Shown here piece by piece: positions 2,159 to 6,723 of a stretch of 8,598 nt of DNA. Below the pieces are notes generated by a model. The model searched no databases and was not told where the DNA came from. It saw nothing but the letters and a program-made list of their open reading frames with translations. Source of the DNA: a virus (lineage: Duplodnaviria; Heunggongvirae; Uroviricota; Caudoviricetes); IMG/VR virus record IMGVR_UViG_2802429224_000018. One strand, given 5' to 3'. A program made the translations under genes and the position numbers. Numbering within the stretch: position 1 is the first letter of the stretch; every line of letters starts with the position of its first letter.

Positions 2159-3088
2159 TCAGTAGTTATGTATTGAAGGAGGTAATTCTTTATTCTTAAG
2201 TCTCATCCATGCGGAAAGATTCGTTGGTCCGTCTGGCTCATTGATATCAACATCTCGTGTGTGATTGATTAAAACGTCTCTCGCCATTCCGATAACATAC
2301 GAGAACTCATGACCATAGTCGTAGCATCTGCCGGAATAGTTCGATTGAATTTGTTTTAGCGCCGGATACAATTCGCGGAATAATGCCTGTGAGCGGTTGG
2401 CATAATCCCATAACCATACAAGACTGTTTGCTTCTTTTGCAGAAAGCTCGTTGGTTTTCTTATCTTGTTTGCCGATGAACTCTCCTTCAAGCGGAACGCG
2501 AGCAGCAAGTGACAGTGCTTCGGTAAACTGCTCCTCACTGATTTCTTTGTACGAACATCCAAAATGGGATTTCAGTGACGACCACATGGTGATCATCGCC
2601 TTAGCCTGTTTTTCTTTTGGCAGAGACTGACCGCGACTCATGACGAGTTGTTTAATGGCTTCCTGCTGTTCAGTGGTGATTTTACCCGGCAACGCCTTTT
2701 TAGCTTTGCGTGGGTTAACTACATGGCCTTTAGTCCAGTACTCGTATAGCACATCGTCACACTCTTCCTGATACTGGATTACCTTGTCGCGGATTTCAGG
2801 GCGGACTTTGTTAGGACTGATGGTTTGCAGCCAGCCAGCAAGTTTGCGAAGTGCCAAACAAATAATCTCACGGCACTGTTCATCACCAGGAAGCTGCATT
2901 GTGATTTTCACAATGGAGGTTTTAAACCGTTGCTTTATTTTCGTAAACTGTGAAGCCCAATCCATACCCATTCCCTCAACGATAGGTTTCATTGGGGTGT
3001 ACGGATCACCGTTGTGATTGACGACATAAAGCTCTGCGCCGTGGAATGGCACGTTGATAGTAGATACCGCTGTTGCTATACTTTTCAT
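2159..3088 (-). CDS. ant: Antirepressor Ant (P22 immI-type)
   Basis: 309-aa ORF, ATG at 3088-3086 with AGGAA 9 nt upstream, TGA at 2161-2159. It lies immediately downstream of an Arc-like gene and divergent from an Mnt-like gene, which is the canonical immI arrangement. The N-terminus ([23 protein letters not shown]...) is recalled as P22 Ant-like; P22 Ant is ~300 aa. Confidence 0.8.
3054..3082 (+). promoter_or_regulatory. Psar-like sigma70 promoter inside the first codons of ant, firing antisense
   Basis: TTGATA (3054-3059), a 17-bp spacer, then TATACT (3077-3082) on the plus strand. The predicted start near 3089 is directly opposite the ant start codon. Confidence 0.5.
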
Positions 3089-3160
3089 GTCAATATTTCC
3101 TAAGCCGATTTGTTGATACCGAAGCCCTGACTGTTACAGCAGTTGGGGCTTCACTGTTTT
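3089..3160 (+). ncRNA. sar: sar-like small antisense RNA complementary to the ant ribosome-binding site
   Basis: The Psar-like promoter upstream and an intrinsic terminator (hairpin 3121-3152 plus T-tract to 3160) bracket a ~70-nt transcript. It is fully complementary to the ant Shine-Dalgarno and leader (3089-3105). P22 sar is 68-69 nt with the same placement and orientation. Confidence 0.55.
3121..3160 (+). terminator. Intrinsic terminator of the sar-like RNA
   Basis: GAAGCCC (3121-3127) pairs with GGGCTTC (3146-3152); the stem can extend to ~13 bp with two G-U pairs around a 6-nt loop. It is followed by ACTGTTTTGATTTCTTT on the plus strand only; the minus-strand side is not U-rich. Confidence 0.55.
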
Positions 3161-3320
3161 GATTTCTTTGCCGCATCAAGCATCACTTCTGAAAACGTGC
3201 GCTTGCCACTGAATACTCTTTCTCTTCTCAATTTTTCGTTCGTGCCAAATGATTCGCCATGAACAAAATTTGGTCTCAAAATGGTAAGCGCAATCTCTTT
3301 GACTACTGCATCCAAGCAAA

Positions 3321-3461
3321 TCACACTGTTACCCCCTCCCTCTTCAGGCTGTCCAGCACCCGTTTAATTACTTCTGCGCTGAATGAGCGACACTCTTCCT
3401 TTGCTTTTTCTTCAAGAATTTTTTCTAGCTTCTCTGGCATACGCAGTGTTTTTACCTTCAT
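3321..3461 (-). CDS. arc: Arc-like ribbon-helix-helix repressor (46 aa); not present in the supplied ORF track
   Basis: Manual translation of the minus strand: ATG at 3461-3459 with GGAGGA 4-5 nt upstream, TGA at 3323-3321. Product is MKVKTLRMPEKLEKILEEKAKEECRSFSAEVIKRVLDSLKREGVTV, which aligns with P22 Arc as recalled (NLRWPREVLDLVRKVAEENGRSVNSEIYQRVMESFKKEG): L-R-x-P, A-x-E-x-x-R-S, E-x-x-x-R-V and K-x-E-G are conserved. It is upstream of ant and divergent from mnt. Confidence 0.8.
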   Translation of the reverse strand: MKVKTLRMPEKLEKILEEKAKEECRSFSAEVIKRVLDSLKREGVTV

Positions 3462-3480
3462 TGCATCCTCCGTTGTATGT

Positions 3481-3540
3481 GGTACGCATACATAGTATTT
3501 AGGTACGCATTGATAGTCAATAGATACCTACATATCCTGT
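3481..3540. promoter_or_regulatory. Divergent Pant/Pmnt promoter-operator region
   Basis: Minus strand (Pant): -35 TTGACT (plus 3520-3515), 17-bp spacer, -10 TACTAT (plus 3497-3492). Plus strand (Pmnt): -35 TTGATA (3510-3515), 17-bp spacer, -10 TATCCT (3533-3538). The two -35 boxes overlap within the palindromic core TTGATAGTCAA. Around it sits a 31-bp imperfect palindrome centred at 3515 (TAGGTA...TACCTA outer arms, 11 of 15 arm positions symmetric) and a 15-bp direct repeat GGTACGCATnnATAG at 3481-3495 and 3502-3516. Confidence 0.55.
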
Positions 3541-3566
3541 GGTAAAAAATTATTCAGGATGTGCCG

Positions 3567-3818
3567 ATGTCTGATCGTAAGTACAAAAACCCTCAAGTGA
3601 ATCTGAGGCTTCCTGTAGAGATAAAGGAACGTCTTATTGAACTGGCTGAGGCTAATTCTCGTTCATTAAATGCCGAGATGGTCGCGGCACTTGAAGCATG
3701 GACCGAAAAAAATAAACACATTCAAGCACTAGACCTTGCAACTATAGCATCACGATTGATAGATCTTGAACGCGATGTTGAGACGCTAAAGACCATGTAT
3801 GGTAAGGATGAAAAATGA
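3567..3818 (+). CDS. mnt: Mnt-like ribbon-helix-helix repressor (maintenance of lysogeny; represses Pant)
   Basis: ATG at 3567 with AGGA 7 nt upstream; the track's GTG at 3561 is too close to the SD. 83 aa, TGA at 3816-3818. NPQVNLRLPVEIKERLIELAEANSRSLNAEMVAALEAW aligns with P22 Mnt as recalled (PHFNFRMPMEVREKLKFRAEANGRSMNSELLQIVQDAL). Same length as P22 Mnt and divergent from arc. Confidence 0.85.
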   Translation: MSDRKYKNPQVNLRLPVEIKERLIELAEANSRSLNAEMVAALEAWTEKNKHIQALDLATIASRLIDLERDVETLKTMYGKDEK

Positions 3819-4024
3819 ACAAAAAACAGTTTATTAAGTCAACAACGTCAAGCAAGGAAGAGCTAGAGAAGGAGCTAAACTCCCTGAAATATGCTCTGTG
3901 CCTGGTTTACTCAAGACTGCCAATGGAAGATAAAAACGCCATTTACAATGAAATGATTAGCAGCCTTGATTTTAACGATAGAGACCTAGCATCCCACCTC
4001 AACAGCTTCCGCGTCCCTGAGTAA
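3815..4024 (+). CDS. Hypothetical 69-aa protein, translationally coupled to mnt
   Basis: Its ATG (3815-3817) overlaps the mnt TGA (3816-3818) in an ATGA junction; AAGGA 6 nt upstream; TAA at 4022-4024. Predicted soluble and helical; I recognise no family. Confidence 0.6.
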   Translation: MNKKQFIKSTTSSKEELEKELNSLKYALCLVYSRLPMEDKNAIYNEMISSLDFNDRDLASHLNSFRVPE

Positions 4025-4184
4025 TTCTGTTGCGGATTTGCTTCTTGCGGTGGTTTAAGCTGGAGAGCTTGGCTTCTGCTTCTGATATTTGTGCATCAAG
4101 ATCTTTAAGCTCAAGATCTGAAAGTCGCTGGTCAAGCAAGGTTTGGTTCAACTCAATGTTGTTCAGGCGTTCTTCTATGGTCAT
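3999..4184 (-). CDS. Hypothetical 61-aa charged coiled-coil protein
   Basis: ATG at 4184-4182 with AAGGTG ~5 nt upstream. Heptad-like, Leu/Glu/Asp/Lys-rich sequence (LNNIELNQTLLDQRLSDLELKDLDAQISEAEAKL). Its 3' end overlaps the 3' end of the 3815-4024 ORF by 26 nt. Could be a chance ORF. Confidence 0.35.
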   Translation of the reverse strand: MTIEERLNNIELNQTLLDQRLSDLELKDLDAQISEAEAKLSSLNHRKKQIRNRITQGRGSC

Positions 4185-4209: not shown

Positions 4210-4509
4210 GTGAAGCGATGGGTTATAGGTGCATTCTGTTTTCTAATTAGTGGTCTTGCACAATCGCAAGATAAGGATCTGAAATTTGCTAACGACATGT
4301 TAGTTACAGCTAAAGTTGCTGGCATGTGTGGAACATTTAAACAAATGTTTGCTTTTCAAGAAGCAACCCAGATGCCAGGCGGAGATGAATTTATTGAACG
4401 TTTTTTGAATACGGAAATTTCTCGCCTAGGGATGTCACTTCAAGAGTTCATGAAGTTGTGCACAGATTCTATAGAGTCATACAATAAATTAAAAAGGATG
4501 TCAGAATAG
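4210..4509 (+). CDS. Hypothetical secreted (signal-peptide) protein, 99 aa
   Basis: GTG start at 4210 with GGGAGG 5 nt upstream. N-terminus MKR-WVIGAFCFLISGLAQS-QDK has the n/h/c organisation of a Sec signal peptide; the mature part (~80 aa) is helical with two Cys. TAG at 4507-4509. No recognisable family. Confidence 0.6.
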   Translation: MKRWVIGAFCFLISGLAQSQDKDLKFANDMLVTAKVAGMCGTFKQMFAFQEATQMPGGDEFIERFLNTEISRLGMSLQEFMKLCTDSIESYNKLKRMSE

Positions 4510-4535: not shown

Positions 4536-4604
4536 ATGGTAACAATCGGTTGGATTATTGTTGCCCTGCTTGTTGCTCTGTGGGCAAAGAATCGTTACTA
4601 CTGA
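4536..4604 (+). CDS. Candidate 22-aa hydrophobic mini-protein ([22 protein letters not shown]); not in the ORF track
   Basis: ATG at 4536 preceded by GGAGG with a 6-nt spacer; a single predicted transmembrane helix with a basic/aromatic C-terminus; TGA at 4602-4604. Caveat: its last 50 nt are antisense to the 3' end of the gp16-like gene, and antisense of Gln/Glu-rich coding sequence tends to look hydrophobic. Confidence 0.25.
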   Translation: MVTIGWIIVALLVALWAKNRYY

Positions 4605-6723
4605 GAAAAGCGACAATACCAACGCGGGCTAGATTTTTCTTCTCGTCCGCTGATAGCGTATTTACCCAATCCCTATATGGTTTCACTTTCTGCATTGAAG
4701 CATCCACCGATTTCCTAGAGGCTGGGGTGCTGGCGTGACCTGCGGCAATCCTTTTTGAGAGATTTTTAAAAGCCGGAGATGCTATTAATTCATCAGCGGC
4801 AGCCATTCTTGAGTTTTTACCAGAACGGAGGAGGCTAAAGAGTACCCCTGCCGTACCGGCTCCAGGCGCTCCAATGGCTGTGGTTAGCCCTTCTGCTTTA
4901 GCCACGTCTTTTCCTATTCCATATATACGCCCAAGCATTCCCTTCTCTCCTGCGAACTGATTCATCATCCGGTCAATTTGAGAGGAGGAATACACCTTCT
5001 CGCTGCCCACCCTTTGCATGCCAGAAGCCACCTCATAGATGTTTCTCAACCTACGCGTAGCCGGATAGCCAATTGCCCGGCTCAATGCCTGCATATTTGA
5101 TTTGTTTCTTGATAGCCCTTCATACCACTTAACAAACCCAGGAACACCAAGTGACTGCCCGGGAGATTTAGCGAACGTAGTGAAAGCCCTATTCATTGCG
5201 GTGGCAACAGCTGGTTGCACCATGTCATCAGGAAGATTTGAAACTAGGCGACGGAAGTCACCTCCCTTTCCTTGAGACATATCGACGATAGCTTGCTGTA
5301 ATTGCGGCACTATTCCTTTATCCAAGTCTCTGCCAAGATTTTGAACAGCGGCTGCCTGTACTGCGAATCTCTTTCTCCCGATCTCTCTAGCTAAATTCCA
5401 TGTATCCTCTGCACCATATTTGGCAGCAGCGGCTCCCTGATCTTGTATCAGTGCGCTTTCAATAATTCCAAGGTGCCGAGCGTCGATGCCGCTATATGGC
5501 CCTTTATCCATCTCTTTGCCAAGAGCCCTTCCAACCTGTCGTCGAACTGCATCAAGAAGACCATAAGTCGGGGCGGTGTTTGGGTCTATTTGTTCCAAGG
5601 TCTTTGACAGTTGAGGATATAGCGATTTTAGTTTTTCTAGCCCACCGACATCATCTGCAATATCCTCAATGGCGTTAGTGGTATGGGTGGTATCTACGGT
5701 AGCTCTTGTTGGAATTTTTGCTCTAATTTGATTGTATAGAGTGTCTTCTTGGCGCTTCAGGTTTGATCTTAACTCCTCATAAGAGCTTTTTACCTTTTGA
5801 TTGATAAAGTCCTTATCAACGCTCCCACCAAAATCATTAATAAATTTATCTGCCTGCTCTCCAAGCCTACTAATGGCCTCTCGCTGTGCGTGGAACAGTT
5901 TATTCCCTGGGGTTGCAGCTAAAGCATTTTCAAACGCGCGGTAAGAAGGGTTGCTGGAGTACATGCCGGGAGTTAAGGCATCTTCCATCCCAAGATTGCG
6001 GGCGGCCTGTAGCACAGAATCATCTGGTGAAACAGCTTTCGCGAGAGCATTTAAACCAGATCTGTTTCCTGTTATTGGATTCACATCTGTAGCTTTCGTT
6101 GCAACCCTCGCCATTCCACTAAGTTCAGATGCCTGAGACATTTCTGCCGATGGAGGCTTAAACCTCTTCGTAACCGCACTGGCTGCTTTGCTAATCACTG
6201 GAGATGCCAATTCAGCAATTGGACCAGCGGCAGCACCTATAGCCGCCCCTGTAGTTACATTGCCACCGGTTCCGTTAGCAACAACACCACCTTCAACAGC
6301 GCCAAGCCCTGCGGCGGCAGCCAGCCTTGCCGCCCCTTTCGGAACCTGAGAAATAATCCCACCACCACTAACAAATGGCGCTGCTTGTCCAACAAACTCA
6401 CCAACATCTTGTGCGGTTGATGGTTTTGCCGCTAACTTCTGCTGTAGAGACTGAATTGCGGCTTGCTCTTCTGGTGTCATATCCTGAAACAGGCCAACAC
6501 CTTTACCAATATCCATCAATCCACTGAGAACACCATACATAAAACGGTCGAAACCGTTAGCATTATTAACAACATTTTCCTGTCTGGAATTTTCCTCTGG
6601 CGAAACCAAAGGTGATTGCTGCTGTTCTGGTTGGGCATCAAGCACAAAACCATCAGGAAGCTGTGAGTTATCAGGCTGATTATCGAGAACAAAGCCTTCG
6701 GGTAAACCTACATCGGTTGCCAT
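4555..6723 (-). CDS. Ejection (DNA-transfer) protein, P22 gp16-like
   Basis: 722-aa ORF, ATG at 6723 with AGGAA 7 nt upstream, TAA at 4557-4555. It is the third of three consecutive late genes directly upstream of the immI module, matching the P22 order 7-20-16-(sieA)-mnt-arc-ant-9. Ala/Gly-rich internal stretches. The start overlaps the preceding gene's stop by 16 nt. Confidence 0.75.

Follow-up and report, generated by a model that had tools for sequence, protein, structure and literature searches.

A probable 46-codon arc gene in the immI region of a P22-like prophage

The DNA analysed here, a stretch of 8,598 nucleotides (hereafter the window), carries an antirepressor gene and, further along, an mnt-type repressor gene. 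Between them, on the minus strand at positions 3321 to 3461 (stop codon included), lies a reading frame of only 46 codons. A first, sequence-only reading proposed that this frame encodes an Arc-like repressor and thereby completes an immI module comparable to that of phage P22. Is such a short frame a gene, and would its product be the missing partner of mnt and ant? Length alone carries no significance in this matter, since the window holds 85 open reading frames of at least 30 amino acids. Considering the Pfam and hhalign matches, the pattern of selection and the identity with a RefSeq protein, the frame is very probably a functional arc gene, encoding the 46-residue ribbon-helix-helix repressor of the immI module in a P22-like (Lederbergvirus) prophage.

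A short Arc-type reading frame and its conservation

The coordinates first proposed for the frame are exact, on the minus strand. Translation would start at an ATG and yield the product MKVKTLRMPEKLEKILEEKAKEECRSFSAEVIKRVLDSLKREGVTV; 46 residues are the maximum length, as an in-frame stop codon precedes any earlier start. The strong Shine-Dalgarno (SD) sequence claimed for the gene was also recovered: read from the sequence, GGAGG occupies positions 3467 to 3471 on the minus strand, 5 nt before the ATG, and a purine-rich GGAG or AGGA element is retained at this place across diverged loci.

The product belongs to the Arc family. It matches the Pfam Arc profile (PF03869) over positions 9-46 of 50, scoring 33.6 bits (E=3.4e-8) where the gathering score is 20.4, and it is assigned in PHROGs to phrog_228, "Arc-like repressor". 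Searches against proteins of solved structure with phmmer returned P22 Arc (1ARQ) for the single sequence (E=1.7e-3), and a profile built from 13 relatives returned P22 Arc chains (E=2.5e-7) as well as AmrZ (E=4e-8). With hhalign, residues 1-45 of the window protein were aligned to residues 7-51 of P22 Arc over 45 columns with a probability of 96.1%; BLASTP gave 36% identity between the two proteins over 39 ungapped residues. The ribbon-helix-helix signature that had been noticed in the sequence is thus confirmed by a Pfam match above the cutoff and by profile matches to solved P22 Arc structures, and the search for membership of the Arc/MetJ ribbon-helix-helix superfamily gave a significant match.

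Structure prediction, which had been suggested as a check, gave a model of only moderate confidence. In the AlphaFold (AF2) model of the monomer, a strand (residues 6-7) is followed by two helices (10-22 and 29-41), which is the anticipated order of elements. The mean pLDDT is moderate (65.5), as may be expected because an Arc monomer is half of an intertwined dimer, and a Foldseek search of the PDB with this small and uncertain 46-residue model gave no meaningful match. By homology with P22 Arc, the N-terminal strand KVKTLRM should pair, in the dimer, with its counterpart in the other subunit, and the resulting sheet of two strands would read the major groove of DNA in a sequence-specific manner. 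CopG, RelB/ParD, TraY and AmrZ, which are ribbon-helix-helix antitoxins or plasmid regulators, belong to the same fold class, with a weaker match in the case of TraY; the window protein differs from them in having neither a toxin partner nor a plasmid context.

The likeness to P22 Arc (53 residues; PDB 1ARR, 1PAR and 1BDT; PF03869) extends to the place of the gene, which in both cases is the first downstream of Pant, divergent from mnt and upstream of sar and ant. Conserved features are the arginine of the strand and the proline that follows it, the motif R-S-x-x-x-E where helix B starts, and K-x-E-G at the C-terminus. The window protein had been described as shorter than P22 Arc with a different N-terminus, and the alignment agrees: residues 1-6, that is the N-terminal arm, are missing, and the C-terminus is one residue shorter. 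In P22 Arc, Q9, N11 and R13 are the base-contacting residues; their positions are occupied in the window protein by V3, T5 and R7.

Conservation was studied in loci fetched through the neighbouring Mnt protein, 80 of them from IMG/VR, to which the window was added to give 81. A short Arc frame, divergent from mnt and about 100 bp upstream of it, is found with its SD sequence in 77 of these 81 loci carrying the window's type of Mnt, and an antirepressor gene follows downstream in all nine loci for which downstream frames were listed. No Arc was called at the usual position in three loci; in two of these (L014 and L037), a different mnt gene and a different Arc allele stand in between. For the 46-residue allele, 37 copies were obtained with 17 distinct DNA sequences, the variable columns of which are distributed 7/3/17 over the three codon positions. 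Between the window gene and a copy of the CUS-3 type, 10.5 synonymous and 1.5 nonsynonymous differences were counted. A longer allele of 48 residues (MKVKTLRMPEWLEKALEQSAKKDDRSFSNEVLRRLKESVAKDGIVCPE), carried by the Salmonella phage SEN22 and its relatives, shares the first ten residues, the control region and the Mnt type of the window but is only about 57% identical to the window protein overall. Across codons 1-10, the two alleles are separated by 5-6 synonymous changes, for about 6 synonymous sites, and by no nonsynonymous change. At position 7, all six arginine codons occur among the alleles. Purifying selection on the gene is therefore strong, and most of it falls on the strand that would read DNA.

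These data bear on a reading in which the gene, although intact, is in decay, the armless protein no longer binding DNA usefully and ant being left to the control of Mnt and sar. The arm contacts DNA in P22 Arc, and the window protein lacks these six residues. In addition, degraded arc genes have been reported from some P22-like phages (PMC2629481). However, a short N-terminus is conserved throughout a whole clade, with alleles of 46, 48 and 50-53 residues, and the codons of the strand are those under the strongest purifying selection in arc, which a non-functional strand would not show. Decay of the gene is therefore improbable, and a working repressor remains the preferred reading.

The immI module and its control region

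On the other side of a 105-bp spacer (3462 to 3566) and in divergent orientation, the plus strand carries mnt (3567 to 3818; the RefSeq start is the ATG at 3567). Its 83-residue product combines an Arc domain (Pfam Arc, 40.1 bits) with a C-terminal oligomerisation region. It resembles P22 Mnt (83 residues; PDB 1MNT) as the product of a divergent partner gene and by its ribbon-helix-helix N-domain; identity amounts to 32% over 79 residues, the C-terminal region included, and the tails are similar (TLKTMYGK and TLKDLYKK, respectively). The strand of the window Mnt, PQVNLRLP (encoded within 3567 to 3620), has Q, N and R as in that of P22 Arc (PQFNLRWP), unlike that of P22 Mnt (PHFNFRMP).

On the minus strand, ant (2159 to 3088) encodes a 309-residue antirepressor, recognised by Pfam P22_AR_N (151 bits) and P22_AR_C (103 bits). 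The antisense RNA sar was located by Rfam RF00262 on the plus strand at 3090 to 3155 (62.1 bits against a gathering score of 43, E=2.7e-11), where it covers the ribosome-binding region of ant. A terminator scan found a 14-bp hairpin at 3121 to 3152, followed by a T run. The layout is that of P22, and in both phages the 5′ end of sar abuts the start codon of ant. A candidate Psar (TTGATA, 17 nt, TATACT, with an upstream TG) was found by promoter scan on the plus strand at 3054 to 3082, inside the 5′ end of ant; it scores 10 matches out of 12 and has the same position as the annotated sar promoter of P22. In two representatives of the SEN22 type (L011 and L062), no sar reached the Rfam threshold.

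The gene order is that of the annotated P22 record. The mnt / arc-ant architecture that had been suggested is therefore present, and it is more complete than was described, with sar, its promoter and its terminator; arc and ant are, however, not adjacent as in P22, since the 232 nt between these two genes of the same strand hold sar and a reading frame of 57 codons. The module as a whole stands between the tailspike gene (1 to 1980, with a P22-type head-binding N-terminus) and the ejection-protein genes (4555 onward). The 722-residue frame at 4555 to 6723 has the position of P22 gene 16, and neighbours in related loci are annotated accordingly. The region between homologues of P22 gene 16 and gene 9 has been termed the "ant moron" (PMC2629481). 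A complete and probably functional immI matters for annotation, because a prophage with ant but without arc would be read differently.

Three small frames with no assigned function fill the interval from mnt to the gene 16 homologue. The first, of 69 residues (3815 to 4024, plus strand; PHROG 16466), overlaps the mnt stop codon as ATGA. The second, convergent and of 61 residues (3999 to 4184, minus strand; PHROG 7586), is predicted to form a coiled coil and has a weak XhlA-like match. The third, of 99 residues (4210 to 4509, plus strand; PHROG 19844), has a signal-peptide-like N-terminus and occupies the position of sieA in P22.

The spacer between mnt and arc contains conserved promoter-like elements on both strands. 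Its core is conserved among 34 distinct versions, some of which have fully diverged flanks, and reads GTAGGTATCTATTGACTATCAATGCGTACCTAAATACTATGTATGCGTACCACATACA in the orientation of arc. A promoter scan proposed a candidate Pant on the minus strand (3492 to 3520), with a -35 hexamer TTGACT (3520 to 3515), a 17-nt spacer and a -10 hexamer TACTAT (3497 to 3492). The -35 hexamer is invariant across the 34 control regions, and the -10 hexamer is TA(C/A)TAT in all but two of them (L071 and L072), which have CACTAT. Relative to arc, this candidate has the same position as P22 Pant. On the plus strand, the same scan gave a candidate Pmnt (3510 to 3538), with TTGATA (3510 to 3515), 17 nt and TATCCT (3533 to 3538). 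Within its -10 hexamer, only T, A and the final T are invariant across diverged loci, the pattern that is expected of a working -10 hexamer. Pant and Pmnt are inferred as candidates from consensus scans and conservation. Their -35 hexamers overlap back to back, whereas in P22 the two promoters overlap almost completely on opposite strands. With such a different geometry, the regulatory logic of P22 may transfer incompletely in detail.

Three GTAC-centred sites, exactly 21 bp apart, were found within positions 3481 to 3531. A repeat search placed GGTACGCAT at both 3481 and 3502, with a degenerate version, GATACCTAC, following at 3523. One site falls in each promoter spacer and one at the predicted start of Pant transcription; the sites at 3502 and 3523 also belong to an imperfect inverted repeat with arms of 18 nt (3496-3513 and 3517-3534), whose centre falls on the -35 region common to both promoters. 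The window has no exact copy of the 9-mer other than those at 3481 and 3502, and among 91 loci the pair was found in 68, once per locus and always in the mnt-arc spacer. These sites are obvious operator candidates, but much less confidence is placed in their use as operators than in the arc gene itself. Their assignment to Arc or to Mnt by covariation among the 34 control regions was tried and failed, because the loci had all been chosen to share one Mnt strand. The GTAC sites stay the same beside Arc strands that differ (SSVRF, VSVRM), and the two loci with tandem mnt genes, L014 and L037, are uninformative in this respect since the window-type mnt is there a second, passenger gene without GTAC sites. 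In four other loci (L064 and L066 to L068), where Arc starts with MKKVKTIRMPDW or MKKVKTIRMPEW, a palindrome, GTATGCATAC, stands in place of the GTAC site where Pant transcription is predicted to start, and the other two sites are retained.

A scheme for the working of the module may be drawn from the P22 paradigm (PMC11016777, PMC2629481). An operon consisting of arc, the 57-codon frame and ant would be transcribed from the candidate Pant (3520 to 3492), facing away from mnt. Upon infection, Pant would fire, Arc would accumulate and shut off its own operon, and the synthesis of Ant would be confined to a short burst. Arc would probably also shut down Pmnt, given that the -35 region is common to both promoters. 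In the lysogen, Mnt would hold Pant off, and pairing of sar RNA with the ribosome site of ant would act as a third brake.

Mosaic arc genes and the junction between arc and sar

The operator region of the window shows no similarity to the operators of P22, either Oarc (ATGATAGAAGCACTCTACTAT) or Omnt. With its different strand residues, the window allele appears from these comparisons to represent another type of specificity within one kind of switch, rather than a system outside the immI kind. N-terminal residues of Arc and Mnt are said, after work of Knight and Sauer in 1989, to set operator specificity.

Related loci offer what may be regarded as a natural illustration of that result. On one side, Arc alleles that are only about 57% identical keep MKVKTLRMPE together with the same control region. 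On the other side, ATCC 11775 and phiv205-1 (L005 and L006) have in common with the window the C-terminal half of Arc (AKEECRSF...KREGVTV) and the frame downstream, and differ from it in the N-terminal half of Arc, the operator region and mnt (L005 1671 to 1940, L006 1735 to 2004). A metagenome contig (L091) carries an Arc in which an N-terminal half of P22 type (MQGARKMPQFNLRWP) is fused to a C-terminal tail of window type, DSLKREGITV. These mosaic joints indicate that strand and operator move together. Thus, the Arc strand and the operator region would be inherited as one unit, and the joints inside arc would mean that the strand travels with the operator region, and the helical body with the downstream genes. 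In the spacer of L005, the -35 hexamer is flanked by inverted arms of 12 bp, GATAGCAAAGTG and CACTTTGCTATC.

Tandem mnt genes, with two specificity types in one operon, were observed in L014 and L037 (1744 to 2252) and in CUS-3 (L001, 1866 to 2395). In L014 and L037, the window-type mnt is the second gene and no GTAC sites are nearby. It may be speculated that stacked Mnt alleles widen the immunity conferred by immI against superinfecting phages. L014 also carries a third type of immI (1636 to 1980), in which an Arc (IAPLGIRIPPEI) and an Mnt (ISPLGIRIPDYL) have the same recognition strand, so that both would presumably read the same half-sites; its spacer contains the repeats ACACCGTG and ACACTGTG.

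The other variable part of the locus is the junction downstream of arc. P22 has no gap between the arc stop codon and the sar terminator. In the window, about 165 nt lie between the two, and an extra 135 bp or so is taken up by the frame of 57 codons on the minus strand (3151 to 3324; PHROG 17642, function unknown), which has no counterpart in P22. The GTG with which this frame starts shares bases with the stop codon of arc (GTGA), and its own stop is a TGA at the foot of the sar terminator, of which it forms the first base-paired triplet. The frame is annotated as hypothetical in ATCC 11775 and phiv205-1, and it also stands behind three or more other Arc alleles, in E. coli, in Klebsiella aerogenes and in a metagenome. 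A pN/pS of about 0.5 was obtained on 11 differences, with variable columns distributed 7/2/4 over the codon positions, and its AF2 model has a pLDDT of 54.6. No match to a protein family, a toxin, an NCBIfam model or a PADLOC defence system was found for it; for the proteins of the locus in general, NCBIfam offered no specific model and PADLOC no meaningful match. In L091 (1542 to 1760), an in-frame duplication of 45 nt has lengthened a copy of the frame to 72 residues, with RRERVF repeated.

A derivation of this frame from ant was considered. In a protein collection clustered at 90% identity, the 57-residue product is grouped under a 300-residue antirepressor as representative. This clustering is probably an artefact, direct comparison having given no significant similarity: 33% identity with E=0.04, and shuffle tests with p=0.16 against the window Ant and p=0.03 against another antirepressor. 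The idea of an ant relic is thus unsupported.

The content of the junction was counted over 38 loci with a 46-residue Arc. It is empty in 10 and holds the 57-codon frame in four, a cysteine-rich frame of 67 codons (the CUS-3 type) in 17, a frame of 80 codons in three, one of 73 codons in one and one of 74 codons with CxxC pairs in one; one locus has 177 nt without a frame, and one has no clear assignment. The frames are mutually dissimilar, of at least five kinds and 57-80 codons in length, and all of them overlap the arc stop codon by 4 nt. At the two junctions that were read, those of the window type and of CUS-3, the frame ends in a TGA at the foot of the sar hairpin. Paired CxxC motifs are seen in two of the products, MSKECCFCG...CSDC in CUS-3 (L001 2638 to 2840) and MRISYINCDFCH...CNKC in L027. 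Junctions counted as empty keep a remnant of 12 codons (MIRLDAAKKSKQ; L002 1660 to 1757). This remnant looks like the 57-codon frame after an in-frame deletion of 135 bp between the short repeats GCTTGGATGC and GCTTGATGC.

The same counts speak to the view that the ribbon-helix-helix protein is an antitoxin and the 57-codon frame its coupled toxin, instead of arc being a dedicated regulator of ant. A ribbon-helix-helix antitoxin gene overlapping a small gene is a common layout, with which the GTGA overlap fits, and the neighbouring Mnt gives weak, sub-threshold matches to antitoxins of this fold. However, with the junction empty in 10 of the 38 loci and filled by four other, dissimilar frames in about 22-23, arc does not depend on a 57-codon partner. 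Neither a toxin nor an NCBIfam or PADLOC match was returned for that partner, the best family match of the window protein is Arc itself, and the flanking sar, ant and mnt define immI. A toxin-antitoxin pair is thus very improbable here, and arc is preferably regarded as a regulator of ant. It is tempting to imagine, though only tentatively, that the interval from the arc stop to the sar terminator serves as a dedicated insertion slot for small accessory genes, which would be translated by coupling to arc and expressed, like the antirepressor, in the brief burst from Pant that follows infection. In such a case, the 57-codon frame would encode a real early protein, for instance an anti-defence or host-takeover factor, and would not be filler.

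Public records and the case of CUS-3

The arc gene was presented at first as missing from the list of open reading frames. It is absent from that list, as it would be under a default cutoff of 60 residues like that of the frame finder used here, but public annotation does contain the identical protein: RefSeq WP_000865490.1, "Arc family DNA-binding protein", agrees with the window product in sequence (100% identity), length and context. It occurs at the same position in E. coli O104:H4 2011C-3493, whose prophage matches the window only across about 3050-3800. WP_000865490.1 and WP_000865491.1 are Arc proteins of prophages of E. coli, Salmonella, E. albertii and Pectobacterium. Contigs with the exact sequence number about 1000 and come from E. 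coli and Salmonella, with close variants in E. albertii and Pectobacterium; the surrounding 1.4-kb region has matches in about 780 complete records of E. coli. Literature searches returned no experimental work on this allele. The gene is already known, and the annotation call, while correct, is ordinary.

CUS-3 is a different matter. In its genome (CP000711; L001 2501 to 2641), an intact arc is present that is 97.8% identical to that of the window, with the same SD sequence and the same control region; the record leaves it unannotated and labels the stretch only 'bsq2; boundary sequence'. The ε34 genome paper of 2008 concluded that arc is apparently missing from CUS-3 and HS-1 and that these two must regulate ant in another way (PMC2629481). 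That the frame is a chance one in intergenic boundary sequence, as the CUS-3 record in effect treats the stretch, could find encouragement in this label, in the 2008 comparison and in the abundance of frames of 30-60 codons in the window, but it is refuted by the selection and profile results and is left with a negligible probability by the Pfam match above the cutoff, the variation dominated by third positions with its very low nonsynonymous to synonymous ratio, the SD sequence and position conserved across the loci, and the identical protein annotated in RefSeq. The published statement therefore needs a small correction, at least as regards CUS-3: this phage does have the arc gene, which escaped annotation merely by its small size.
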